Origin: Nanobdellati archaeon
Lineage (GTDB): Archaea > Nanobdellota > Nanobdellia > UBA10117
Direction of reading: 5' to 3'
Assembly: GCA_016182015.1 (NCBI GenBank)
Contig: JACOYC010000012.1
Span: 29,623-93,622, forward strand
DNA length: 64,000 bases
Positions 1 through 64,000 of the stretch are shown piece by piece. The position numbers and the translations under genes were made by a program. The notes under the pieces are model-generated. The model ran no database searches. It saw nothing but the letters and a program-made list of their open reading frames with translations, and was not told the origin of the DNA. Position 1 is the first letter of the stretch, and every line of letters starts with the position of its first letter.

Positions 1-692
1 ATATAACAAATGACATAGCAGATATTAAAAAAGATCGTGAAAATCATGAAAAAGTGGCAAGGCCGCTTGCCTCCGGAAAAATAAAAGTCTGGCAAGCAAC
101 TGCCATGGCAATTTTTTTGCTTGGCGCGTCTTTCGCTATTGGTGCAAAATTATCTTATAAATTTCTTTCTATCCAGCTTGCCTTGTTCGCAGTTGGCCAG
201 ATTTACAACATATTTTTAAGGAAAGAGGAGTTCGCTGACATACTTACAATTGCTTCTAGCTTTGTGCTACGCGCAGTTTCTGGCACATTTATAATTGGTT
301 CAGACATTTCGCCGTGGCTGGTCATATGCACGTTTTTGCTTTCGCTTTTTTTGTCAATCGGCAAGCGCCACGGAGAGCTGATAATGCTACGTGAAAATGC
401 AGACGCCCACAGGCCGGCGCTGAAATTTTATACAAAGGAAGTTACTGGCGCGCTGATGATTGTAGCAACGACGACATTGATAATGTCATATAGTTTTTAC
501 AGCTTTTTGAGCAATAGGAATTTGCTTTTTACATTGCCAATATCTCTGTATGCGGTTTTTAGATATTTTCATTTGGCGTATTCTGGCAGTGAAATAGCTA
601 GAAAACCAGAAAATATGCACAAAGACTGGAAATTATTTGCCAGCGTGTTTATATGGGTGTTGACTATTTTTGCGATTCTTTATTTGCGATAG
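1..692 (+). CDS. UbiA-family prenyltransferase (5' truncated at window edge); membrane protein
   Basis: Frame continues to nt 1 with the motif NDIADIKKDRENHEKVARPLASGKI, which fits the UbiA NDxxDxxxD...RPLxSG signature; multiple TM segments. Confidence 0.7.
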   Translation, partial: ITNDIADIKKDRENHEKVARPLASGKIKVWQATAMAIFLLGASFAIGAKLSYKFLSIQLALFAVGQIYNIFLRKEEFADILTIASSFVLRAVSGTFIIGSDISPWLVICTFLLSLFLSIGKRHGELIMLRENADAHRPALKFYTKEVTGALMIVATTTLIMSYSFYSFLSNRNLLFTLPISLYAVFRYFHLAYSGSEIARKPENMHKDWKLFASVFIWVLTIFAILYLR

Positions 693-1872
693 CTTGTTTG
701 TAAAGAAATTCAATGTCGCCCGCAATATTATCCCAGTCATATTTTTTAGCATGGTTTTTGTTCGCTTTAGAAATTCTATTTCTCAACTTTCTGTCAGAAA
801 GCAGTTTTATAATTTTTTCTTTTAGCGCAGCAACATCACTGTAATTGACAAAAAAACCATTCTCAGGCTCCGACATAGCATACGGTACGTTGTTGACTGG
901 CGTTGCAATTACAGGACAGCCGGCCGCCATAGCCTCAAACAACGTCAGTGGCATGCCCTCGCGCTTGGAAGGCAGGACATAAATGTCCGCAGCGTTATAT
1001 GCCGCAATAACATCCTCGCGCGGAAGCCGGCCAAGAATTTTTAAGTTTGAATCGCCACCAGATAAGATCTCTAATTCTTTTTGATATCCGTCATCACCGC
1101 CCGCGAATACGAACGTAACGTCATTTCTTTCAGCAAGAATTTTCTTTGCCGCAGCCATCAAAATATCCGGCCCTTTAATTTTATTAATTCGCGCAAGAAA
1201 CAAAACCATTTTTCCGTTTATTTTGTATTTTTTCTTAAAGCCAATACTGGGCGAAGTTCGGCGCGGCGCAGCGGAGTTTATTTTACTCATATTATTTTTT
1301 CCAGTAGAATTAAAGAATTCTGCAGAAACCCCATTTGGTATAGGTATAATTTCGTTTTTTTTCTTGGATAGCTTTTTTATAAACTGTAGTTCGTATGGGC
1401 TAAGAATAATTATTTTGTTTGCCCACTTCAATGCCAGCCGGCCAAAAACGTTCTGCATCGGCCACACAAAAATATTTCCAAGAAAGTTCCTCTTGTCAGC
1501 AATCCATGGACTATGCGTGGTGTGCACGACAGGAACTTTTTTTATTCTTGCGGCCAGCCCGGCAAGGAAAGTGTGCGGCTGGTTTAGCGAGTGTGTGTGT
1601 ATTACACTGAAATCGCTGCCAAGAATTTTAAAGAAAATTTCCGGCCAGACGTAAGTCAGAGCGGTGACCCTGAACCAGTAAGGAATCCTGTGCACAAATA
1701 TCCCATCAACCAGTAAGTTTTTTTTCTTTAATCTTCGTTTTTTATCTGTATCTGCACAAAAAACGTGGACCTCATGGCCTGCCCGTACCTGTCTTTTTGC
1801 AAGCTCGTAAACGACCTGGCCAACGCCACAGATTGTAGGCTTGAAAAACGGACAGATATGCGCTATTTTCAT
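664..1872 (-). CDS. Glycosyltransferase family 4 (GT4)
   Basis: N-terminus MKIAHICPFFKPTICGVGQVVYELAKRQVRAGHEVHVF is typical GT4/GT-B; C-terminal sugar-nucleotide-binding region. Confidence 0.8.
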   Translation of the reverse strand: MKIAHICPFFKPTICGVGQVVYELAKRQVRAGHEVHVFCADTDKKRRLKKKNLLVDGIFVHRIPYWFRVTALTYVWPEIFFKILGSDFSVIHTHSLNQPHTFLAGLAARIKKVPVVHTTHSPWIADKRNFLGNIFVWPMQNVFGRLALKWANKIIILSPYELQFIKKLSKKKNEIIPIPNGVSAEFFNSTGKNNMSKINSAAPRRTSPSIGFKKKYKINGKMVLFLARINKIKGPDILMAAAKKILAERNDVTFVFAGGDDGYQKELEILSGGDSNLKILGRLPREDVIAAYNAADIYVLPSKREGMPLTLFEAMAAGCPVIATPVNNVPYAMSEPENGFFVNYSDVAALKEKIIKLLSDRKLRNRISKANKNHAKKYDWDNIAGDIEFLYKQAIANKESQK

Positions 1873-1873
1873 A

Positions 1874-2998
1874 TTAATGTGCTACTGCCATGCTGATGCC
1901 CGGCAGGCCAGCGGGATTTTTCATTTGTAAGTATGGCTTTGCCCATCTACAGCCTTCGCATAGTTTGAACATCTGTACGTTTTTGTTCAGCAAGCCGTCG
2001 CGTAGTGCTCGATAATACGCACCATTCCAGATTTCCCCCAAAGATTGCTCAGTAAGATTCATATCACCGAATTTGTGCGGTTCAAGAATTACGCAGCATG
2101 GTGTTACGCGGCCCTGCCAGTTCAGATAAATAGAACGCCAAGGCCATATACACTTTGAGTCGTGTTCGTCGTCATATGCAACAGCCACTCCAAGATTTTT
2201 TCCTTCTGCCCGCGCTTCAGAGATTAGTTTTTTTATTTGTTCTTTATATGATACGACAACTTCATCTTTTGAAAACCCGGTTTTTTCATATTTTTCTAAG
2301 TAATCATCTTTTTCCTGCAGGTCTTGGAATTCTATTTGTTCTATGCCAAGCTCGCGCGCAAATTGTACGAATTTTGGGATTTCACGCATGTTTTTTTTCA
2401 TTACAACTGCTGCGAGGGCCAGCCTGAACTTCGCACTGGTTTCTTTTCGTTTGGCGGTTAGCCGTTTTATGCCGGCCACGACGACATCAAACTTGGCAAG
2501 CTTTCTAATAGACTCATAAGTTTCCCTTTCTGTTGAGTCGACAGAGAGAATCATTTTATTTACCTGTGATTGGCAGATTTTTTCCACGATTTTTTCTGTG
2601 AAGAGCGTGGCGTTTGATGTTAAATTTACCACGATACCCTTTGAAGCTGCGTAGTTTATCATTTGAAATAAATCGCGGGCAAGGAAAGGCTCGCCTTGCC
2701 CCTGCAGATGTATTTTGACTACCGTGTCGAGTTTGTCGATTACTGTCTTGAATGTTTCAAATGACATCTCGCCCAACGGCACGCCGAGTTCAGTACGCAC
2801 GCACATTCTGCAGGCCAGATTGCACCGCAAGGTCGGCTCGATTTGCGCAGTTATTGGCTTGTGTTGAGATATATCTCCCCACGGCCTGATATGATATGCG
2901 AGCAGATTTACAGCTACTTTTGCATTTTGAGCGAGCGATCTGTTTCCTGTAAGGGCTAAGAATCTGTTGAAAAACTCCATGAAGCGATAAAATTTCAT
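1874..2998 (-). CDS. Radical SAM protein with C-terminal SPASM/twitch-like Cys cluster
   Basis: CNLACRMC matches the CxxxCxxC radical SAM motif; C-terminal CCVILEP...CEGCRWAKP cysteine cluster. Confidence 0.8.
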   Translation of the reverse strand: MKFYRFMEFFNRFLALTGNRSLAQNAKVAVNLLAYHIRPWGDISQHKPITAQIEPTLRCNLACRMCVRTELGVPLGEMSFETFKTVIDKLDTVVKIHLQGQGEPFLARDLFQMINYAASKGIVVNLTSNATLFTEKIVEKICQSQVNKMILSVDSTERETYESIRKLAKFDVVVAGIKRLTAKRKETSAKFRLALAAVVMKKNMREIPKFVQFARELGIEQIEFQDLQEKDDYLEKYEKTGFSKDEVVVSYKEQIKKLISEARAEGKNLGVAVAYDDEHDSKCIWPWRSIYLNWQGRVTPCCVILEPHKFGDMNLTEQSLGEIWNGAYYRALRDGLLNKNVQMFKLCEGCRWAKPYLQMKNPAGLPGISMAVAH

Positions 2999-3056
2999 AC
3001 CACATCAAAAATAAGTGCAGCAAAACAATTTTAAAACTTTCCTTCTTTACTTGTAA

Positions 3057-4226
3057 ATGCGCATAGGTTATGTGATTCCGTATTTTCACCCTTTTAAGGA
3101 CGGGTTGGAGAACAACTGCCTCTATTTGGCAGCCGAATTGGCGAAGCGCGGGCACGAGATTCACGTTTTTACCTCGGACCGGCGCGGCGCAGAGGTTTTG
3201 AAGAACACATATGAAGCTTATAATGGCGTTCATATTCATCGCTACCGGACTTTAGTTAGATATAAATATTATTTTTTTTACAATGCTGGAATGGTATCCG
3301 ACATACTGCGCCGCAATTTCGATGTTCTGCATTTCCATAATATTGGCCATCCGCAGTGGGATGCTATACTACTCGCCACCCGCCTGTTGAAAAAAACAAA
3401 ATGCGTAAACACTCCGCACGGGAATTTTTTTGCTGGCATAGAAAAATCATTTTTTGGAAAAATTTTTAAGACAGTTTACCGATTGTGGGAGTTTCCATTT
3501 AATAGGCTTTACCACGCCTGTGTCAAAGTGAATCAACTACAGCACAAGTGGCTGCCTGAATACGGTTTTAAGAAAAAATTAGTTTATATCCCTGACGGCA
3601 TTCCAGCGGAGCGTTTTAAGAAAATCGACAATTCAGAATTTTTGGAGAGGCACGGATTAAGCGGCAAGTTTGTAATTTGCAATCTTGGCCGGCTTCTGCC
3701 TTACAAAGGTCTGGATCAGATGGTAAAAATCCTGCCGAAAATTTTGAAAAAATATCCAGAGGTTGTATTTTTATCAATGGGGCCGGACCGTGGCGATCTG
3801 CTGCGGCTGAAAAATTTAGCTAAGGAGCTTAACGTTGAGAAGAATGTTGTATTTGTTGGCGAGGTTTCCGAAGACGATAAATTAAGAGGCTTGGATGCGT
3901 CTAGAATTTTTGTTTTCCCAAGCCAGCCGGGTACAGAGTTTTTTGGCATTGGAATGCTGGAAGGTATGGCGCGCGGCGTGGTGCCAATCGCGACAAGGCA
4001 GGAGGGGCCAAACTTCCTTTTGCGCGACGGCGAGAACGGAATGCTTTTTAATTATGGGAATTTAACTGAGCTGAAGGAAAAAATTTTATTCATGATAGAA
4101 CATTCAGAATTTTTAGAAGCTGCAAAAAAGCAGAACTTCGGGCTGGCAAAGTCATTTGTGAACGAGGAAATTGCAAAAAGCCTTGAGGCAGTATATTTTA
4201 AACTTTGTAAAGGCACAAGCCTTTAA
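3057..4226 (+). CDS. Glycosyltransferase family 4 (GT4)
   Basis: MRIGYVIPYFHPFKDGLENNCLYLAAELAKRGHEIHVFTSD; GT-B fold signature. Confidence 0.8.
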   Translation: MRIGYVIPYFHPFKDGLENNCLYLAAELAKRGHEIHVFTSDRRGAEVLKNTYEAYNGVHIHRYRTLVRYKYYFFYNAGMVSDILRRNFDVLHFHNIGHPQWDAILLATRLLKKTKCVNTPHGNFFAGIEKSFFGKIFKTVYRLWEFPFNRLYHACVKVNQLQHKWLPEYGFKKKLVYIPDGIPAERFKKIDNSEFLERHGLSGKFVICNLGRLLPYKGLDQMVKILPKILKKYPEVVFLSMGPDRGDLLRLKNLAKELNVEKNVVFVGEVSEDDKLRGLDASRIFVFPSQPGTEFFGIGMLEGMARGVVPIATRQEGPNFLLRDGENGMLFNYGNLTELKEKILFMIEHSEFLEAAKKQNFGLAKSFVNEEIAKSLEAVYFKLCKGTSL

Positions 4227-4246
4227 TATCTTTTGTTATATGTTTT

Positions 4247-5785
4247 TTGATGGATTTAAAGTTGTTGGAGACAAAAGTTAATTTATGGCTGTCTAACAAA
4301 TATAATTTATATTTTTTAATAATATTTATTTTTGCTTTTGCAGTAAGATTATATTATTTATTTTTGACCAAGAACCAGGCCCTTTGGTGGGATGAAGCAG
4401 AATATCTTAACATGGCTAAACACTGGGCGTTTAGTATGCCATATGATTTAAATCCGCAAAGGCCGCCATTATTTCCGCTTCTCGCTGCAGCTATATTTTC
4501 ACTCAGCGGCGGCGTTTTCGCGGCAAAGCTTTTACTGTCGCTGGTGCCGTCAGTTTTGATAGTTTTTTTAACATATATAATTGCGGGCGAGTTTTACGGC
4601 AAAAAAGCAGGCCTTGTTGCATCTGCATTTATGGCGCTTTTTTGGTTTGCTTTGTTTAATACTGTCAGGTCACATACTGATTTGCTGGCAATGCTGTTTA
4701 GCTCGCTGGCGATTTACTTTGTTTGGAAGCATGCCGAACAGCAAAAAAACTGGATGATGGTTTTGGCCGGCCTGCTTATTGGGCTTTCAGTACTTACGAG
4801 GCTGCTTGCAGGTATAACCGTTATAATTCTGGCAATTTTTCTGCTGATTGCAAAACGCAGGGCGTTGTTTTTTGACAAATATATTTGGTTTTCCGGGCTG
4901 GCCGCAGCCGTTTTTGTTTTGCCGTATTTAATATGGGCAAAGCTGCATTTTGGCAATATACTTGCACCATTTTCAGGCTATGAATCCGCATTTACGGGCA
5001 TTTCTAATACATTTGCGTGGCACGTTTTCGGATTTTTCAAATGGTTCGGCGAGTGGCCAATTTTTATTTTGTTCTTGGCCGGCTGCGCCATGGTTTTAAC
5101 AGATATTGTGCTGGGTCGCGAGTTGGTATTTAAGCAGGAAGGACGGATGCTGCGCGCAAACGCCCTGCTTCTCGTCTGGGTTTTCACATACGTATTTTAT
5201 TTTGTTTTTATCGTAAAAGCATATACAACAGAAGACCGCTGGCTTTTGCCGATTACGATTCCAATGTTTATACTTGCTGCGAGGCCAGTGATTGCCGTTT
5301 TTGATTTTCTTAAGAAATATAACCGCAGCGTTGCGCTTGCAAGTATAGCAGTACTTCTTGTGATTTGTTTGTATCCGCAGTATGCGCATGCCGCAGCAAT
5401 AATACCCGCCAAGGCAAATACATACGCGCAAGAGCCATGGGCCGGCCAGTGGCTCAAAGAAAATACGCAGCCAAGCGACGTTATAATGTCAGTCAACGAA
5501 CAGGCACCGCTTGCATTTTATTCAGAACGCAGAATCTATGGGCTCGACACGCCGGACGGAACAGTTGAGCGAATTAAAAAATTCAAGCCAAAATATTTTG
5601 TCGTAACCGGATACGCGAAGGCAGATTCGTGGCAGGTTAATTTTCCTGAAAAATATAAATACTCAATTGTCCCTGCGCATGCCTTTTTTGAAGACCCGGA
5701 GCACAAACAGCTGGCCATAATAATATATAAATTCAGTAATTATGATTTAAACCCAAGCACAGCTAACAGTCCAACAGATGCGTAA
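4247..5785 (+). CDS. GT39/ArnT(PMT)-like integral membrane glycosyltransferase (dolichyl-phosphate-sugar dependent)
   Basis: About 11 TM helices; WWDEAEY (DE motif) in the first loop is typical of GT-C PMT/ArnT-like enzymes; C-terminal soluble domain. Confidence 0.65.
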   Translation: MMDLKLLETKVNLWLSNKYNLYFLIIFIFAFAVRLYYLFLTKNQALWWDEAEYLNMAKHWAFSMPYDLNPQRPPLFPLLAAAIFSLSGGVFAAKLLLSLVPSVLIVFLTYIIAGEFYGKKAGLVASAFMALFWFALFNTVRSHTDLLAMLFSSLAIYFVWKHAEQQKNWMMVLAGLLIGLSVLTRLLAGITVIILAIFLLIAKRRALFFDKYIWFSGLAAAVFVLPYLIWAKLHFGNILAPFSGYESAFTGISNTFAWHVFGFFKWFGEWPIFILFLAGCAMVLTDIVLGRELVFKQEGRMLRANALLLVWVFTYVFYFVFIVKAYTTEDRWLLPITIPMFILAARPVIAVFDFLKKYNRSVALASIAVLLVICLYPQYAHAAAIIPAKANTYAQEPWAGQWLKENTQPSDVIMSVNEQAPLAFYSERRIYGLDTPDGTVERIKKFKPKYFVVTGYAKADSWQVNFPEKYKYSIVPAHAFFEDPEHKQLAIIIYKFSNYDLNPSTANSPTDA

Positions 5786-6759
5786 ATTGCTGTCGTTGCA
5801 AACATAGCAACAGGGTGAAGAAGCCACGCAGAGTCTTTTGTTTCGATTGCTTTTTGTAAACCAATAATAGTGTTTGGTAAAATTAAAAAATTTTTTATAA
5901 GCTTTAAGCCAATTTGCAGAAACTCTTTTCTGTTTTTTGGCGTCCAGGAAAAGTCTCCACGCATTTCGTTTTTAGTTACATGAACCTTGGCCCAAAGTGT
6001 TTTCTTTTTTATGAAATTCCAGAAAGAATATACTGCATAGTGATGCGTTGCGGCGTTTTTTGGTATTGCCAGCCTTGCCAGCCCGAGTTTTGCAAGTCTG
6101 AATATTACGTCAACATCTTTTGTGTATCCGCCAACGGCGTCGAGCGCCGATTTGCGGTAGATAAAACAATTTCCACCCGCAATAAAAAACTTTTCTGGCG
6201 TGATTTCAGTGGTATGATAATCGCCGCAGTCTTCCAGCTTAACTTTTTTCAGGCCAAGCAGGCCATGCAGCGAAATTTCTGCAGCAAATGGATCTGTGCC
6301 AACATAACTCAGATACCTGTTTGTTATTTTGTCTTCCTTTCGCGCAAGTAAGCGGCAATCACAGCCGAATATTGTCTGGTCGGCCAGCATCGGTTTAAGC
6401 ATTTCATAGAGCCAGTTTTCTCCAATAAGCATGTTGTCATGGTCAACAAATGCGATAAAATCGCCGCGCGCTAACGCGAGGCCCTGGCTTTTTCCCATCC
6501 CGCGGCCTTCTGGAAATCTTTTTTTATTTTGTATCAGCGTTACAGGAAAGCTGGCGATCATTTTTATTGTTTCTGCGGAGCTGCCGCCGTCAACACATAT
6601 TACTTCAAATTTGTCCTTCGGGTAACTTATTGCGAAGACACTCTTCAGACAGCGTTTAATTAAGTTATGCATTTCATGCTGCTTCGTACTGTAGGTGCAA
6701 ATGATAAAGCTAACAAACGGTGTTTTGTCCATTTTTTTCCTCTGACCCGCCAAAAACAT
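5740..6759 (-). CDS. Glycosyltransferase family 2 (GT2)
   Basis: FVSFIICTYSTKQHE N-terminal GT-A motif, DxD-like VDGGS, C-terminal TM. Confidence 0.75.
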   Translation of the reverse strand: MFLAGQRKKMDKTPFVSFIICTYSTKQHEMHNLIKRCLKSVFAISYPKDKFEVICVDGGSSAETIKMIASFPVTLIQNKKRFPEGRGMGKSQGLALARGDFIAFVDHDNMLIGENWLYEMLKPMLADQTIFGCDCRLLARKEDKITNRYLSYVGTDPFAAEISLHGLLGLKKVKLEDCGDYHTTEITPEKFFIAGGNCFIYRKSALDAVGGYTKDVDVIFRLAKLGLARLAIPKNAATHHYAVYSFWNFIKKKTLWAKVHVTKNEMRGDFSWTPKNRKEFLQIGLKLIKNFLILPNTIIGLQKAIETKDSAWLLHPVAMFATTAIYASVGLLAVLGFKS

Positions 6760-7999
6760 AGGCCACTGTCAACGAGGCAAGCAGCCCAATGGCGACGAAC
6801 GCCATTATTTTTACGATTACCCATAGCGACGAGTGAAATGTCAGAATACTAATGATTTCTGCAGCCGGGAAAAGCAGCAACATAGGCAAAAATTTTGTTT
6901 TGCCGGATGATAGAAAGTAATTTACAAATAAATATGCAATAGAAAATAGTGCCATTGTTAGGCCGAATAGCCCCATAATCGGAATAATATCAAAATATTC
7001 TGGGCCGAAAAGCATGCCAACAACAAGCTTCGGCGCTAGCGCATATACTGTTGCTGCCGCGCCAGTCAGGCCGGCCACTATGAGCAGCGATTTTCTAAAC
7101 GTTGGTTCATAGTCCAGGTTTTTAGCCTTAAGCTCTGATATTTTTGGGAACATCACTTGGCTTATAGATACAGAAGCAAAGAATATTATTTTGGCAAGAA
7201 GGGCTGCTGCAGCGTAATGGCCAGCGCTGGCAGGCGAGAAAAAATGTTTAACAAGTATAACATCAACAGTATAAATTGCGGTGATAGCACTCATCGCCAA
7301 GACTACCGGTATTGAATATGCATAGATTGCTTTTCCGTCGATTTTGTACTGCTCGATGTTATTTTTGTATTTTTTTAGCACGAGGCTGGCAAGAAGCCAC
7401 GCCCCAGCAAAAGAAAATACTATGGCCGCAAGTGCCCCATTCACGCCAAAACCCAATAAGACCAGCGCAATTCCAGAAGCTATTTTTATTATCGCCTCAA
7501 AGATGACATTTGCCCCGAGCGCGATAAATTTTTGCAGGCCTTGCAGAATGCCGCGCAGGTTTGAAACAACAAAAACAACAAGGAAAACAAAATTAAATAT
7601 GATTATGTTTGCAGCAGGTGCGTGTAGGAAAGTGCTAAGTGGTTTTGCCCCAGCCATAAATATTACAAAAAAAACCATGCCAAGTATAAGTATTTTTTCA
7701 TGTGATTTTTTAAGCAGGTAGCCGATCTCACCAAATTTTTTTTCAGCTTTCAGGGCAGACACAAATTTTGCAGTTACTGTTTGTATCGTGTTCAGGACGG
7801 CAATAAGAAAATAAAGTATTGCGAACAGCGCGCCCACAACCCCATAGCCAGCAGGCCCGAGCAGCCGGCCCATCGAAAAATGATAGAAATAATTAATCAG
7901 GCTGGCAAACAGCGTAGTTGAAAAAAGTATGCTGCCTTGCTTTAACAGCTTTTTATCTTCGGTCAGGAAAGCCAGTAATTTTTTTAACATATTAAGCAT
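6710..7999 (-). CDS. Oligosaccharide flippase (Wzx/MOP superfamily, AglR-like)
   Basis: 429 aa, about 12 TM helices; N-terminus KLLKQGSILFSTTLFASLINYFYHFSMGRLLGPAGYG is typical of polysaccharide biosynthesis protein. Confidence 0.75.
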   Translation of the reverse strand: MLNMLKKLLAFLTEDKKLLKQGSILFSTTLFASLINYFYHFSMGRLLGPAGYGVVGALFAILYFLIAVLNTIQTVTAKFVSALKAEKKFGEIGYLLKKSHEKILILGMVFFVIFMAGAKPLSTFLHAPAANIIIFNFVFLVVFVVSNLRGILQGLQKFIALGANVIFEAIIKIASGIALVLLGFGVNGALAAIVFSFAGAWLLASLVLKKYKNNIEQYKIDGKAIYAYSIPVVLAMSAITAIYTVDVILVKHFFSPASAGHYAAAALLAKIIFFASVSISQVMFPKISELKAKNLDYEPTFRKSLLIVAGLTGAAATVYALAPKLVVGMLFGPEYFDIIPIMGLFGLTMALFSIAYLFVNYFLSSGKTKFLPMLLLFPAAEIISILTFHSSLWVIVKIMAFVAIGLLASLTVAYVFGGSEEKNGQNTVC

Positions 8000-13376: not shown

Positions 13377-13564
13377 GGGCCGATGGTCCAGAACGTAAGT
13401 GGACAATGGTACGACGTCTCCTTCACACGGCAGCTTCTTTCTTTCCAAAAGAAAGACGCTCCCGGGCATCTAGAAAGAAAGGAGTGCGATCGTAGATCGC
13501 ACTAAACTTTTTGGATTCCCGAGGAAAAGGGAGAAGATCGCAGGTTCGATCCCTGCTCGGCCCA
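13377..13564 (+). tRNA. tRNA-Val (anticodon CAC) with about 101-nt intron at canonical 37/38 site; possible extra insertion in D-loop
   Basis: Acceptor GGGCCGA/TCGGCCC, T-arm GCAGG-TTCGATC-CCTGC; anticodon stem TCTCC/GGAGA split by intron; loop TTCACA gives anticodon CAC; D-region longer than normal. Confidence 0.6.
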
Positions 13565-13617
13565 TTTAGTTTAATCAATCGCGATAGCTTTATAAACAGT
13601 TACCTTATGGCAATAAT

Positions 13618-14517
13618 ATGTTAGCTGAAAACAGCGTTCGCAGGGTTGCAGACCATGTCGAGCAAGAGTTACCTACAAGATTAGCAAGAGACCTTGGTGA
13701 TAGTTTAGTGTCAGTTTCTTTGGTTGGCAGCATGGCCACAGAGCCGCCAACTATAGGTTTAGTAAATGATATGGACGTTGTAGTGGTTTCTGGCGGAGAT
13801 CCAGCAACTGATACAATGAGAATCGAGCAAACAGTTGCCGCACTTTGTCAAGAGTTAGCCGGTGATCCGTCTTTAGATCTAACACACACTCTTTTACGTG
13901 GGCCGATAAAACCGGCTGCAAGCGGCAGGCCAGTATTACAAATACACTGCATACCAACAACAAAAGACAGGCTGGCCAGGACAACTCCCGATGCACCCCG
14001 ATTGACATACAATAGCTGGCGCATATTTAATCGTCCGTTATATGGGGCGCTGCTGACACAGTTAATTAAAATCCCTCGGATTGGCTTGCGTGATGTATTA
14101 GAAGACGAACGAGGCCTGCCGCAACTTCGAATAGGTCTTACAGAAATGGCTGCGAAGGAGAGGCAAGCATTGGGCGATGGTAGTGTAGTAGATGTTGAGT
14201 TTAGTTGGAAATTAAATGCTAGGGAGCGCGCCGAGGCGGCCATGTACGGTACACTTACTGCAGCTTGGAATACCATAGAGGCATTGTACCCACACATAAT
14301 TACCGAACATTATGAGCGTCCAGCTGCTGCAAGGGAGTTTGGTCAAACATTTGGCGGGCTTCCGATGGCAGGCTGGCCAGTTGAAGTTCACAGGCTATGC
14401 GAACAACACCGGTGCGGGGAACTTTTACTTACGCCCGAATCTGTAGCAAGGTTAACCAGAAAAACAGACGCGTTTTTAGGCTCACTTGAAAAAGCCATAG
14501 CAGAAATTCGCGGCTAA
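13618..14517 (+). CDS. Pol-beta-superfamily nucleotidyltransferase domain protein (AadA/ANT-like), compositionally atypical
   Basis: LVSVSLVGSMATEPPTIGLVNDMDVVVVS fits hG[GS]x9-13DhD; Lys-poor/Arg-rich, unlike the neighbouring genes. Confidence 0.5.
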   Translation: MLAENSVRRVADHVEQELPTRLARDLGDSLVSVSLVGSMATEPPTIGLVNDMDVVVVSGGDPATDTMRIEQTVAALCQELAGDPSLDLTHTLLRGPIKPAASGRPVLQIHCIPTTKDRLARTTPDAPRLTYNSWRIFNRPLYGALLTQLIKIPRIGLRDVLEDERGLPQLRIGLTEMAAKERQALGDGSVVDVEFSWKLNARERAEAAMYGTLTAAWNTIEALYPHIITEHYERPAAAREFGQTFGGLPMAGWPVEVHRLCEQHRCGELLLTPESVARLTRKTDAFLGSLEKAIAEIRG

Positions 14518-14560
14518 TTGTACAGCATAAATTTAAAATGCCGAATGTTGTTATCTATTT

Positions 14561-15677
14561 ATGAAATCCATATTAGGCCAAGCCGCAGAGCTCTGCATGC
14601 CAATCAAAGAAGAACAGGCAAAAGTAGCACAAATAATAAAAGAGATTGAAAATAAAGTTAACTCCGCGCTGAAAAAATCTAAGATTACTGCAAGATGCTC
14701 GGTTGGTGGCTCTGTCGCGAAGGGGACTTGGCTGCCAGGCGTTTCAGATATTGACTTTTTTATTTTATTCGATTACGAAAAATATAAGGGCGAGCACCAG
14801 TTTTTATCTGATGTGGCGGAAAAAGTTTTGAGAAGTATTTTCAAAGGCGTGCAGCGCCTGCATGGCTCGCGCGACTATTTCAATGTAAATTACAAAAAAT
14901 ATATTTTAGAGTTTGTGCCGGTGCTGGAAATTTCTGAGCTGTCAGATGCGCTAAACCTGACGGACTACTCGCCGCTGCATGTTTACTGGGTTCGCGACAG
15001 AGTAAAAGCAAATAGGAAACTGCAATCTGAAGTGCGACTGGCAAAGCAGTTTTTCAAAGCAAACGGCGTTTACGGCGCGGAGTCATACATCTCAGGATTT
15101 TCAGGGCATGTAACTGAAATTCTGACAATTTATTACGGCGGATTTCTGCGGCTCTTAAGCAGCCGCAGCCTTGGGCGAGGAAAAATTTTATTTACTAAAA
15201 AAAGCCGCAAAGAAATTTTTAACAAATCAATCAATAGAATTTTTCAAAATAAAACAGTTTGATGTGAATTCGCTGAAACAAAAAAAAGGCCGGGCTTTGT
15301 TTGTGCTGCAGGCAAGCCGGACAAAGGGAAAAGATGATGTTGTTGGTTCGAAGTTTTTGAAGCAGTTTGAGCAGCTTAAGTCGGGCATAAGTAAATTGGA
15401 TTTTAAAATTATAAGCTCTGGCTGGCACTGGTCCTGCGAGGGAAATGCCACATTTTGGGTTTACTTGCCAGCAAAGCCGCTTTCAAGCAAAAAGATAATA
15501 GAAGGCCCGCCAATAAATATGCCCGATGTTTTCATAAAGCAGTTTAAGAAAAAGTGGAAAAAAGTTTTTATAAAAAACAAAAGATACATAGCAAAGACAA
15601 AAAGAAAAATAATTTTGCCACGAGAAGTTATCAAAATAGCGGCGTCTGCACTCAAACTAAAACTACTAACTAAATAA
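14561..15677 (+). pseudogene. cca: CCA-adding enzyme (archaeal class I tRNA nucleotidyltransferase) interrupted by frameshift near 15156-15175
   Basis: N-terminal part CSVGGSVAKGTWLPGVSDIDFFILF and FSGHVTEILTIYYGGF is class I CCA; the reading frame switches (ORFs 14561-15262 and 15171-15677 overlap); the downstream frame carries FYLLKKAAKKF, the CCA body motif. Confidence 0.7.
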
Positions 15678-15718
15678 TTAACACAATAGTTTAAAAACCC
15701 GCACAGACTTACTAAACT

Positions 15719-16246
15719 ATGTTAGCGCCACTGCCTATTGATAGAGAGCTGTTCCGATGGGTTGTAGTTGTAAGCAACCAGCCGGGCTTAGAGTGGCTGG
15801 CATTTTTGTTCTGGATACTAACAGTTTCTGTTACCGCAGTAGTTCTGGCTGCGCTTTATTATTACTGGCGCGTCAGGCGCGATCATAAATTTACGGCTTT
15901 AATTGTTATTTCAAGCATAGCAACATTTGCGGCCACAGAAGCGATAAAGTGGCTGGCCCAGCGCCCGAGGCCGCACATAACTGATCTTCTCTCATTTCCG
16001 TCTCGGCACACTGCGCTCGCTTTTATGCTTGCATTTTTGATTGGCGCGTATGTTTTGTCAAATAAGGAAAAGGGCAGTTATAAATGGCCTGTCGCTGTTT
16101 CTTTATTCACATGGGCGGCACTAGTTGGGCTTTCCAGATTGTGGCTTGAGGAACACTGGCTGACTGACGTTTTTGCCGGAGCGGTCATAGGCGCTTTGCT
16201 TGGGTGGATTTTTTGGAAAATGAGAAACAGAATATATAAAAAATAA
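15719..16246 (+). CDS. PAP2-family phosphatase (candidate polyprenyl/dolichyl pyrophosphate phosphatase)
   Basis: PAP2 motifs KWLAQRPRP, PSRHT, SRLWLEEHWLTD; 5-6 TM. Confidence 0.8.
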   Translation: MLAPLPIDRELFRWVVVVSNQPGLEWLAFLFWILTVSVTAVVLAALYYYWRVRRDHKFTALIVISSIATFAATEAIKWLAQRPRPHITDLLSFPSRHTALAFMLAFLIGAYVLSNKEKGSYKWPVAVSLFTWAALVGLSRLWLEEHWLTDVFAGAVIGALLGWIFWKMRNRIYKK

Positions 16247-50439: not shown

Positions 50440-50535
50440 CGGTGACCGTGATTAGATTTAAAAGCTGAGAATAAAAGCTTTGTCTGTGCCGATAGCCCAA
50501 AAGCTGCGCTTTTGTGGAATCGTCACGCTCCGCGT

Positions 50536-50719
50536 GCCGACGTCGCTTAACCCGGTATAGCGCTGGTCTCGAAAACCAGTCCCGCAAGGGATTGCAGGTT
50601 CAAATCTAAGATCCAAGGGGGCGCTGCCCCCTTAGTTCTTAGTCACTTCTGATCCCCCGGTCGCATCGCTACGCGATGCAACTAAGGATTAGCAGTGAAG
50701 GAAAATCCTGCCGTCGGCG
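50536..50719 (+). tRNA. tRNA-Ser (anticodon CGA) with about 101-nt intron at non-canonical T-loop position 60/61
   Basis: Acceptor GCCGACG/CGTCGGC, discriminator G, D-arm GCT-TAACCCGGTAT-AGC, anticodon stem CTGGT/ACCAG with loop CTCGAAA, long variable arm TCCCGCAAGGGA, T-stem GCAGG and T-loop TTCAAAT, then an insert before CCTGC. Confidence 0.75.
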
Positions 50720-50814
50720 CTCAATTTTTTCATAATATAGAAATAAGGATTTTTTGATTTCAACCACAAACTATTTAAATGCCCGCAAGTATGTTTAACT
50801 TGAGGTAAATTAAA

Positions 50815-58033: not shown

Positions 58034-58474
58034 ATGGCCACACATGTCGATAGTAAAGCTTTAGCAGGAATAGCCGTATTTATCGCGCTTGCAGCGTTTG
58101 CCAGCCCATATTTGACTGGTAATGTAGCAGCAACAGTTGACAATCTGGATTTGGTTGCTTCTGATGTGACTGTGCCAGCCAGAATACTGGCCAGCGTTGA
58201 GTTCCAGCCGACATTCAAAGTCAGTAATGTGGGCACTGCCGGCATAAGCTCGACAATTTACAAATACGAAATCCTGCGTGGCACGCAACTTTTTACGAGT
58301 TCGACAGAAACATTTACTATAATTGGCGGCCGAGAGCAAATAGTGGAACTGCCGAGGAATATATACCTGCCAGCAGGCACGTACACGCTCAGAGTAACCG
58401 TTGACCCGTACAACTATTATGCTGAAGTAAGCGAGGCTAATAATGTCGCACAGACTGAGTTTACAGTTGTTTAA
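58034..58474 (+). CDS. Secreted CARDB-like protein (paralog)
   Basis: Signal peptide; AEVSEANNVAQTEFTVV. Confidence 0.6.
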   Translation: MATHVDSKALAGIAVFIALAAFASPYLTGNVAATVDNLDLVASDVTVPARILASVEFQPTFKVSNVGTAGISSTIYKYEILRGTQLFTSSTETFTIIGGREQIVELPRNIYLPAGTYTLRVTVDPYNYYAEVSEANNVAQTEFTVV

Positions 58475-58475
58475 A

Positions 58476-59231
58476 ATGACAAATGTAAAAGCCCTAGCGA
58501 TAATAGTTTCGCTGCTGGTTTTTACAATTGCTGTTGCGCCGAATATAACTGGTTTTGTCACTGCAGTCGATTCTGGCGGATGCAGGGGCGTGCCAACTTT
58601 GACATTAGATCCCAACCCAGTGCAGGCCGGCAAGATAGCAACTGCCAGGGTGTCTGGCCTGATGGACTGCAATGGCAAGACTGTTGATTTGAAGCTGGAC
58701 AGCTGCTTTGGTGCAAAGCTTGGCTCGTTCAGATGCGTTGATAAATTTTGCACTTCCACTTTTCCGGTAAAACTTAGCGCGCCAAAGGACTATTTGATTG
58801 CAGCCTGCATTGACAAGAACGGCAACGGATATTTGTATGATGCAGGCGAACGCGCAGCATCGCTTTTCAAGGTGCGCTCGATGCCGGATGTTTATGTAAA
58901 CAAGATTTCATTCCTGCCAGCAGACCCGAGGAGGGGCCAGCAGGTTATTCCAGTAATCAGCGTCGGAAACCGCGGCTCAGCTTCCGCATATTTCTTTAAC
59001 CTGCGCGTGACCCTTTCCCAAAAGGACAGCAATAACAGGGATGCAACAATTACCTCGTGGGAAAACAATGTTCAGGTTGATGCGAACAGCGTGAAGGACT
59101 TCAGGGCGCCAGGCTACTCTTTGAGTCCGGGCGATTATAAGGTTACGGTAGAGCTGGACAGGCTGGACTACATAGTTGAGCTGAACGAGCGCGATAATAA
59201 TGCAAATGCCAAGCTGAAGGTTTATCCATAA
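58476..59231 (+). CDS. Secreted two-domain protein with C-terminal CARDB-like domain
   Basis: MTNVKALAIIVSLLVF signal peptide; Cys-containing N-domain; C-terminal VELNERDNNANAKLKVYP. Confidence 0.55.
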   Translation: MTNVKALAIIVSLLVFTIAVAPNITGFVTAVDSGGCRGVPTLTLDPNPVQAGKIATARVSGLMDCNGKTVDLKLDSCFGAKLGSFRCVDKFCTSTFPVKLSAPKDYLIAACIDKNGNGYLYDAGERAASLFKVRSMPDVYVNKISFLPADPRRGQQVIPVISVGNRGSASAYFFNLRVTLSQKDSNNRDATITSWENNVQVDANSVKDFRAPGYSLSPGDYKVTVELDRLDYIVELNERDNNANAKLKVYP

Positions 59232-61990: not shown

Positions 61991-62543
61991 TATGCAATTC
62001 ATTGATGAGATTCTGGTTCCGAGGACAAGGGTTGCTGTAGTTATAGGCCCAAAAGGCGCGACAAAGGTTACCCTGGAACAGCTTGGCAACGTAAAAATTA
62101 CTGTGAAAAATAATTTGGTAGAAGTTGAAGGCACTGACGCTTTGGAAGTAATGATTGCTAAGAATGTGGTTGATGCGGTCGGCCGCGGATTTTCGCCAGA
62201 GTCTGCAAAACTTTTATTCAAAGAAGATTATGCCTACGAAAAACTCTCGCTGCCGGACTACGGACACAAAAAACAAAGCCACCAGCAGCGCGTCCGTGGC
62301 GTAGTGATTGGAGCAAACGGCAAAGCAAAAAATCTGATCGCGCGGGAGACCGGCGCTGAAATTGTGGTGCAGGGCAAGACTGTTGCGATCCTAGGAAAGT
62401 ACGATGCTGTCGAAAAGGCAAGGCAGGCCGTTGAGATGCTGCTTACGGGAAGACGGCATGCCACGGTTTATAGGTTCCTGAGCGGAGGCAAGGGTTCCGC
62501 GAGGCCCAGCCAAGAAGAGCTCGGCTTGGGTTTAGAGCGGTAA
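61983..62543 (+). CDS. KH-domain RNA-binding protein (Dim2/Krr1-like, COG1094)
   Basis: Two KH-like segments VVIGPKGATKVTLEQ and VVIGANGKAKNLIARETGAEI. Confidence 0.75.
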   Translation: MSNMQFIDEILVPRTRVAVVIGPKGATKVTLEQLGNVKITVKNNLVEVEGTDALEVMIAKNVVDAVGRGFSPESAKLLFKEDYAYEKLSLPDYGHKKQSHQQRVRGVVIGANGKAKNLIARETGAEIVVQGKTVAILGKYDAVEKARQAVEMLLTGRRHATVYRFLSGGKGSARPSQEELGLGLER

Positions 62544-62695
62544 TAAATACATAAATTTTATACATAATAATATATAAAAACATATATCTAATATATAAAT
62601 TTATATGTATGCGTCTCTATAAAAATTGATATTGGCGACGTATACCGATTTTCAAGCGAAAGCATTTTAAAGCCTGCTAACTAAACCAATTTCTT

Positions 62696-64000
62696 ATGGT
62701 TGATAAGCCAATCGTAAATAATAACAACGACCTTAGATCGATCTCTCCAGCCGAGTTTTTCGAGAAAAACCGCCATTTGTTAGGTTTCGATAATCCAATC
62801 AAGGCCCTTTTAACAAGCGTAAAAGAGGCAGTAGATAATTCTCTAGACGCCTGCGAAGGCCACAAGATACTGCCAGAGATTTTTATCCAAATCCAGAAGC
62901 TCGGTGAAACAAGATTCAAGATGATTGTGGAGGACAACGGCCCAGGCATTTTAAAAGAACACGTGGCTAAGGCGTTTGGAAAACTCTTGTACGGCTCAAA
63001 GTTCCAGACTTTCGGCGGCAAGCAAGGCCGCGGCCAGCAGGGCATCGGCATCTCGGCCTCTGTGATGTATGGCCAGCTCACGACCGGCAAGCCTGCAAGA
63101 ATAATAACAAGAACCAAGGGTCAGAAAAACGCATTAGTTCAAGAGCTGAAAATAGACATCAAGACAAACGAGCCACAAATCATAACAGAGGCATCAATTG
63201 AGTGGAAGCACGAACACGGAACTCGCGTGGAAATTGAACTAGAAGCAAAATACATGGAGAAGAAAGCCTCAGTTGTAGAATATGTCCGCCAGACCGCGGT
63301 CGTGAACCCGCACGCAAAAATCACATACATCGATCCGGAAGGCCAGAAAACTGTTTTCGACCGTGTGGTTGAAAAGCTGCCAAAAGAAGCTGAGTTCATC
63401 AAGCCGCACCCATACGGCGTTGAGCTCGGCGTTTTGCTAAGGATGCTAAAAGAAACTTCAACAAGGGCGCTAAATTCATTCCTGACAACGGAGTTTGACA
63501 AGGTCGGCTCGACAACAGCGGAGGAGATTCTAAAAACATCCGGCCTTGACCCGAAGATAATGCCCAAACTCTTGTCAGTCGAGCAAGCGGATAAATTAAT
63601 CAAGGCGATGCACGGGTGCAAAATAATGTCTCCGACTACGACGTGCTTATCGCCAATCGGCGACGAGAATTTGAAAAAGGCGTTGGAAGCAGAGTATGAC
63701 TTGGAATTTGCTTTTGCAGTTACAAGACCGCCATCGGTTTACCGCGGAAATCCATTTTTAATAGAAGTTGCAATCGGCTACGGCGGCGAACTGCCGGCAG
63801 ACCAGCCAGTAAAATTAATCCGATTTGCAAACCGCGTCCCACTTTTATACCAGCAGGGCGCGTGCGCGCTGACGAAGTCAATTACAAGCGTTGATTGGAA
63901 GAACTATGGTCTGCAGCAGAGCGGCCAGAACGTGCCGAACGGGCCGGCCATCATTCTCGTGCACATGGCGTCGGTCTGGGCGCCGTTCACTTCAGAATCA
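62696..64000 (+). CDS. top6B: DNA topoisomerase VI subunit B (3' truncated at window edge)
   Basis: GHKL ATPase motifs EAVDNSLDA, VEDNGPGI, GQQGIGISA; transducer domain follows. Confidence 0.9.
   Translation, partial: MVDKPIVNNNNDLRSISPAEFFEKNRHLLGFDNPIKALLTSVKEAVDNSLDACEGHKILPEIFIQIQKLGETRFKMIVEDNGPGILKEHVAKAFGKLLYGSKFQTFGGKQGRGQQGIGISASVMYGQLTTGKPARIITRTKGQKNALVQELKIDIKTNEPQIITEASIEWKHEHGTRVEIELEAKYMEKKASVVEYVRQTAVVNPHAKITYIDPEGQKTVFDRVVEKLPKEAEFIKPHPYGVELGVLLRMLKETSTRALNSFLTTEFDKVGSTTAEEILKTSGLDPKIMPKLLSVEQADKLIKAMHGCKIMSPTTTCLSPIGDENLKKALEAEYDLEFAFAVTRPPSVYRGNPFLIEVAIGYGGELPADQPVKLIRFANRVPLLYQQGACALTKSITSVDWKNYGLQQSGQNVPNGPAIILVHMASVWAPFTSES

Follow-up and report, generated by a model that had tools for sequence, protein, structure and literature searches.

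A CCA-adding enzyme gene broken by a 143-nt internal deletion beside an ancestry seam in a nanobdellotal contig: most likely either a dead allele or a scar left by assembly

Gene content of the locus

The stretch of DNA that was analysed, hereafter called the window, comprises 64,000 nt of the 107-kb contig JACOYC010000012.1 of a metagenome-assembled genome (MAG) of an uncultured Nanobdellati archaeon (GCA_016182015.1). ORF reading revealed an archaeal class I CCA-adding enzyme gene (cca) that is split over two frames, the second one being +1 relative to the first. The features of this locus, together with three tRNA genes of which the 3' ends were read directly, are the following:

13377..13564, plus strand, tRNA-Val(CAC) gene with two insertions (introns), ending in ...TCGGCCC-A and followed by TTTA
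13618..14517, plus strand, 299-aa ORF (HYT16_02310, MBI2040914.1) with a predicted aminoglycoside-nucleotidyltransferase-like Pol-beta fold, not part of cca
14561..15157, plus strand, 5' part of cca (codons 1-199), head domain with GGS...DxD and start of the neck, ending in ...YYGGFLRLL
14561..15262, plus strand, ORF1 (233 aa), including an out-of-frame tail
15159..15677, plus strand, 3' part of cca in the +1 frame, remaining neck, body, and tail
15159..15262, plus strand, overlap zone, in which the upstream frame contains a 34-codon out-of-frame tail (SSRSLGRGKILFT...) with stop codon TGA at 15260-62
15719..16246, plus strand, PAP2 phosphatase gene (MBI2040917.1; PF01569), belonging to the right flank, which resembles that of homologue P0002
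35876-35996, tRNA-Pro(CGG) gene, ending in ...CAGCCTC-A and followed by TTTCC
~50488-50723, tRNA-Ser(CGA) gene, ending in ...CGTCGGC-G and followed by CTCA

The two pieces of cca follow the head-neck-body-tail domain order of the Archaeoglobus fulgidus CCA-adding enzyme (AfCCA; PDB 1R89/1SZ1; TIGR03671; PF01909, PF09249, and PF21133). ORF1 matched positions 4-206 of the 410 positions of TIGR03671 (cca_archaeal; 174.4 bits) and contained NTP_transf_2 (PF01909, E = 6.5e-9) and only the first half of tRNA_NucTransf2 (PF09249, positions 2-57 of 113). It also carried the head motif GGSVAKGTWLPGVSDIDFFI, representing the Pol-beta motif G[SG]x9-13DxD with the third carboxylate, the columns of which were invariant in the homologue alignment and which is shared with AfCCA. 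The downstream frame (ORF2) matched positions 232-401 of TIGR03671 (62.8 bits) and contained CAA_C (PF21133, E = 3e-9) in the +1 frame behind the stop; in the overlap zone, this frame codes for the conserved AAAALGEEKFYLLKKAAKKF. The two frames that had been proposed in an earlier note on this DNA were thus recovered, as the ORF at 14561..15262 and the frame at 15159-15677 differ by +1 and the TIGR03671 and Pfam matches are split between them. Similarly, the TAA codon at 15156-15158, which the same note had assigned to the alternative frame, does belong to the downstream frame and closes it on its upstream side. The A7 run, which had been placed at 15196-15204 and considered as possibly involved, has its true span at 15197-15203, on the 3' side of the junction; intact relatives keep the same run, coding for LLKKA in a continuous ORF, so that it represents conserved coding sequence and not the lesion.

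Unlike the archaeal class I CCA-adding enzymes, the window cca is distributed over two frames, has no equivalent of AfCCA residues ~190-225, including Arg224, and consists of pieces that remain under the family cutoff. Indeed, both pieces missed the TIGR03671 equivalog cutoff of 281.3 bits, and the sum of their scores (237.2 bits) was below it as well. A complete neck domain with a DPxxxxRN block and the base-selecting arginine is lacking, and the body and tail do not share a single polypeptide of ~410-430 aa with the catalytic part. Furthermore, inspection by eye revealed neither an ATG nor a Shine-Dalgarno-like start for the 3' part of cca, the sole candidate starts being TTG at 15171 and GTG at 15264. 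As assembled, the window cca is a gene remnant that falls outside the functional family. The surrounding order of tRNA-Val, cca, PAP2, and DnaG is common to the window and to the loci of intact DPANN cca homologues.

With regard to the tRNA genes, the earlier claim that those for Val, Ser, and Pro do not encode a 3' CCA was confirmed by direct reading. Neither ARAGORN with default settings nor Rfam (at the gathering score and at E <= 1) reported a tRNA in the window; the three genes are missed because of their introns. Indeed, ARAGORN called tRNA-Pro(CGG) and tRNA-Val(CAC) once their insertions had been removed in silico (two insertions in the case of tRNA-Val), and produced an odd call at 13377-13564 when used with the -i option. 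The Val, Pro, and Ser tRNA genes carry insertions that are long or multiple and lie at non-canonical sites, namely in the D region, behind the anticodon loop, and in the T loop. In addition, the D-region inserts of tRNA-Pro and tRNA-Ser share a common hairpin motif, CCAAAA[A/G]CTGCG(C)TTTT(T)GT.

The tRNA-Val element is conserved upstream of cca in three relatives (L001, L002, and L092). In these, the ATG of cca is located only 5 nt past the 3' end of tRNA-Val (L001:1845-1905, L002:4955-5015, and L092:170-232), and this tight spacing suggests a tRNA-cca co-transcript.

The 299-aa ORF upstream of cca

In the window (13565-14560) and in the relatives L083 and L091, an insertion of ~1 kb containing the 299-aa ORF splits tRNA-Val from cca; the ORF is absent in L001, L002, and L092. 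No Pfam match was found for this ORF, and its family counts 14 representatives among 1.84 billion proteins, with G37, D51, D53, G95, K98, H110, G143, and N218 as invariant residues. An AF2 model (pLDDT 87.5, pTM 0.84) gave ANT(3'')(9)/AadA, ANT(9), and ANT(4')/KNTase as best Foldseek matches in the PDB (E = 1e-6, TM 0.5-0.6). As in these enzymes, the modelled protein would consist of an N-terminal Pol-beta nucleotidyltransferase domain with GS...DxD and a C-terminal helical domain, but it is only 11-17% identical to them, has no Pfam match, and belongs to a tiny family. The suggestion that an unrelated Pol-beta nucleotidyltransferase gene lies directly upstream of cca is supported by this predicted fold, despite the missing Pfam match. 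The ORF neighbours an intact cca of 432 aa in L091, and the adjacent cca of L083 enters the block deleted in the window before the contig ends. The ORF is therefore older than the deletion and is not a replacement of cca.

A 143-nt deletion in the neck domain

In MAFFT DNA alignments with L091, L092, L001, and L002, exactly 143 nt were absent between positions 15158 and 15159, and this only in the window. The gap was a single clean one of 143 columns, where all aligned relatives (4/4) have 143 nt. At the protein level, alignment with the nearest full-length homologues (P0001-P0008; 419-477 aa, 64-74% amino acid identity) showed that the window protein runs from ...YYGGFLRLL(K) straight to AAAALGEEKF..., with 47 residues gone, namely NAVEWKHGDVIDVNKNYKNPNQIFNEVNESKLQSPIIVIDPVEPTRN. 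Using tblastn with ten homologues, residues 1 to ~199 were placed at 14561-15157 and residues 248 to the end at 15159-15650, and residues ~200-247 found no placement anywhere in the 64 kb; the same searches retrieved no second cca within the 64 kb. Because 143 equals 3n+2, the remainder of the gene is shifted to the +1 frame, and the junction itself (...CTC TTA A|GCA GCC...) generates the TAA of the downstream frame. No microhomology could be clearly reconstructed at the junction.

The small frameshift that was implied by the earlier note is not what happened to this gene, as ~47 codons (143 nt), including the DPxxxxRN block, are absent. Its proposed check, an alignment to archaeal CCA-adding enzymes, did locate the lesion (15158|15159), which turned out to be a 143-nt gap instead of a small indel, and the refutation it had envisaged, in which reads would expose an assembly error of one base and thereby bring back a single frame, is inapplicable to a gap of this size. 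Indeed, neither a single-base correction nor slippage can restore the enzyme, because 143 nt are absent. The block is missing in every frame, and we therefore rejected A7 slippage, a programmed frameshift, and an enzyme split into two subunits. In particular, no programmed ribosomal frameshift or transcriptional slippage in 15159-15262 recovers the 47 residues, and the relatives have a single ORF with the same A-run.

The missing block corresponds to AfCCA residues ~190-225, including D218-P-V-D-E-K-R224-N225, as found by phmmer comparison of P0001 with the A. fulgidus enzyme (PDB 1R89 and others). It was kept in all of the full-length homologues (117/117; >= 380 aa, among the best 120 matches), 111 of the 117 matching a regular expression of the block motif and the remaining six being obvious variants. 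In AfCCA, Arg224 and tRNA backbone phosphates hydrogen-bond the base of the incoming CTP or ATP, and mutation of Arg224 lowers the addition of C74 and C75 (PMC3925840). Since this mutation alone already cuts C74/C75 addition in AfCCA, CCA-adding activity of the window cca is predicted to be absent. As assembled, the gene is predicted to give no working enzyme, be it as one protein, as two proteins, or by way of slippage in translation or transcription.

Apart from the lesion, the gene was well preserved. At columns that are invariant in ten other sequences, unique changes numbered zero in the N-part and two in the C-part, compared with 0-7 in intact homologues. This lack of decay implies that the event is either very recent or non-biological.

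Mosaic ancestry of cca and its flanks

The two halves of the window cca have different closest relatives. The N-part shows amino acid identities of 87% with P0004, 85% with P0003, 85% with P0001, and 76% with P0002. For the C-part, the identity amounts to 71% with P0002 and to 58% with each of P0001, P0003, and P0004, these three being 75-80% identical to one another in that part. Neighbour-joining trees placed the N-part within the P0001/P0003/P0004 clade (98% bootstrap support; 0% with P0002) and the C-part with P0002 (100%). At the DNA level, the ratio of A-like to B-like informative sites was 59:8 on the left side of the junction and 30:50 on its right side (Fisher p = 1.6e-10). Chi-square was highest for a breakpoint between 15079 and 15106, and window-wise identities changed over within 15080-15158. 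On these alignments, the ancestry switch is placed at the deletion or up to ~80 nt upstream of it, which is as finely as the data resolve.

The flanks agree with this partition. The tRNA-Val gene, the 299-aa ORF, and the 5' part of cca show 80-85% DNA identity to L091, L001, and L002, and positions 15159-16157 (3' part of cca and PAP2) show 79.8% DNA identity to L092. In L092, the order from cca to PAP2 is as in the window; in L001, an extra EamA gene precedes PAP2, and the PAP2 gene of L001 is far more divergent than that of L092, giving no DNA match to the window. As assembled, cca is a mosaic, with adjacent segments in conflicting phylogenetic placements. Judged from the differing phylogenetic affinity of the gene halves, the break is located at or beside a seam of two diverged sequences, an ancestry switch that the earlier note had overlooked.

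The junction in independent assemblies

A Logan contig from run SRR12113430 (L093) was 100% identical to the window from position 13453 over 1,700 nt and ended at 15152, 6 nt short of the junction. The next retrievable Logan contig from this run begins at 15525, and the contigs from other runs end earlier or miss the gene. The MAG may stem from the groundwater study of He et al. 2021, in which MEGAHIT was combined with IDBA-UD scaffolding. Exact-protein look-ups with ORF1, ORF2, the 299-aa ORF, PAP2, and DnaG gave no Logan contig spanning the junction. We roughly estimate that, with contigs of about 1.6 kb, a break so close to the junction would arise by chance in ~1% of cases. Given this improbability, the assembly graph was branched or thin exactly at the junction. 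The end of L093 fits a heterogeneous or poorly supported site, and it fits a mis-join equally well. A metagenome scan yielded one close relative (L083), the contig of which ends inside the block and shows its start only.

The assembled window is free of N, and the two sides of the junction have neither a repeat nor any stretch of >= 7 nt in common by which a k-mer assembler might be led astray. Tetranucleotide composition did not change at the junction, and three runs (SRR12113430, -384, and -420) contained identical copies of proteins from both the left and the right side; both of these are weak tests for the presence of two organisms. The window is otherwise ~94% coding and contains no other comparable split gene. 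At positions 14034 and 14037, T>G and G>A differences occur in the contigs L094-L096 from three other runs; these are synonymous-level differences in the gene for the same 299-aa protein. The two differences indicate that strains of the same organism co-exist across samples.

Possible origins of the broken gene

Taken together, cca is broken by a 143-base internal deletion beside a seam, most likely as a dead allele or as an assembly scar. A pseudogene allele or an assembly scar is an object of an ordinary kind, and there is a small chance of something more interesting.

The reading that we prefer, at an even chance, is a real, very recent, dead recombinant allele, the function of which is covered by intact alleles or by another gene. 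An ordinary archaeal class I cca would have undergone recombination very recently, and the exchange between diverged relatives would have ended out of register, in the way of homology-facilitated illegitimate recombination; real DNA molecules in the sampled population would carry the junction. The 143 nt lost at 15158|15159 would have removed ~47 neck-domain codons, including those for DPxxxxRN with Arg224, and placed the rest of the gene in the +1 frame, leaving a dead allele. CCA addition would then have to be provided by an intact allele in other cells or by another gene outside the window; because the local tRNA genes do not encode CCA, the working function must lie elsewhere. This reading is favoured by the clean gap, the conservation of the block in 117/117 homologues, the mosaic, the agreement of the flanks, the lack of decay, the absence of N and of a shared repeat of >= 7 nt, the otherwise ~94% coding window without a comparable split gene, and the co-occurrence of left and right proteins, as well as by the intact cca of 432 aa in a relative that shares the 299-aa ORF. 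Against it count the lack of an independent contig across the junction, the lack of clear microhomology, and a switch that possibly lies up to 80 nt upstream of the deletion. Moreover, the loss of the only cca should be lethal, and this essentiality lowers the prior for a dominant real dead allele.

Homology-facilitated illegitimate recombination and the pseudogenes that it leaves as scars have been described in naturally transformable bacteria; we know of no account of it in DPANN archaea. The window resembles such events in that, on one side, donor-like sequence is contiguous with homologous flanks and, on the other, the join is out of register and has cost bases of the recipient or the donor. 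It differs in that no microhomology could be shown at the junction, and an assembly chimera gives an equal picture.

An assembly artefact is a serious contender, at somewhat less than an even chance. In that case, the MAG contig would, within cca, either combine sequence of two related DPANN populations that occur together or collapse a stretch that varies between strains, and the real genes would be intact. The ancestry switch beside the junction has the look of a chimeric join. Indeed, mis-joined MAG contigs are likewise recognised by a switch of nearest relative within one gene and by an independent assembly that breaks at the same place, here 6 nt short of the junction and a second time at 15525. 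Neither half has decayed, cca is essential, and strain variants are present (the two SNPs in L094-L096), all of which would fit an artefact. However, a de Bruijn assembler would require junction-crossing k-mers to make this join, and the two sides share no stretch of >= 7 nt and are not separated by N. A homologous chimera would furthermore be in register, and the join is 143 nt out of register. The steady tetranucleotide composition differs from the compositional shift of known mis-joins, the left and right proteins share the same three runs, and L093 already holds 15080-15152, where the identities change over, contiguous with the left part.

A genuine loss, in which the organism has no CCA-adding enzyme of its own and the junction is real and fixed, is very unlikely. 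The enzyme would be supplied by a host, or its role would be taken by a non-homologous nucleotidyltransferase such as the 299-aa ORF. DPANN archaea are reduced symbionts, the disrupted gene is located on an otherwise clean contig, and the nucleotidyltransferase gene directly upstream of it is unusual and very rare. In one DPANN clade, the Pacearchaeota, class II CCA-adding enzymes are reported to have replaced class I enzymes (bioRxiv 10.64898/2026.05.29.728689). Yet the 299-aa ORF is found beside an intact cca in L091, and its predicted fold is that of a small-molecule aminoglycoside nucleotidyltransferase, without the body and tail that bind tRNA. In addition, the undecayed remnant points to selection until very recently, and all three tRNA genes examined need CCA addition. 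If such a loss were true, CCA-less, intron-rich tRNAs would be matured by a host enzyme or by a non-homologous nucleotidyltransferase.

A simple frameshift in an otherwise complete gene, be it through a one-base indel or a sequencing error or through slippage or a programmed shift at the A7 run, can practically be dismissed: two overlapping frames with an A7 run in the overlap do give that appearance, but the alignments refute it with 143 nt (~47 conserved codons) missing, a shift at the A7 run would exchange the conserved AAAALGEEKFYLL for out-of-frame residues, and the relatives carry the same A-run in a continuous ORF.

Consequences for annotation and other features of the window

In GenBank, ORF1 (MBI2040915.1; 233 aa) goes under the name 'nucleotidyltransferase domain-containing protein', and the 3' part of cca is represented only by 15264-15677, a 'hypothetical protein' starting at GTG 15264 (HYT16_02320; 137 aa). 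A protein search with the 3' half of cca retrieved only two matches, P0124 among them, namely this 137-aa NCBI fragment and a distant one. Surveys of completeness or metabolism would score the MAG as being without cca, and the case matters mainly for annotation and quality control. It illustrates that an apparent frameshift in raw sequence may mask a larger deletion where recombination or assembly has left a seam, which changes the decisive check. A real junction would document inter-lineage recombination in DPANN archaea by which some members of a population lose an essential gene. In the unlikely case that the junction were also fixed and not compensated for, it would be relevant to how deeply the dependence of symbionts can extend into the translation apparatus.

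Among the other features of the window, an Rfam match to CRISPR-DR33 at 63643-63679 (25 bits, E = 0.46, below the gathering score) is most likely due to chance, as 62500-64000 contains no second copy of the repeat. Two adjacent ORFs on the same strand (58034-58474 and 58443-59231) contain one complete CARDB domain each and overlap by 32 nt in different frames; this is the sole unusually long overlap besides that of cca, and the pair could be either a second split gene or two genuine genes. Finally, positions 1-7579, with glycosyltransferase and SPASM genes, are lower in G+C (0.42, compared with ~0.45-0.47) and deviate more in their tetranucleotide profile than any other part of the window, a composition that is typical of a surface-glycosylation island.
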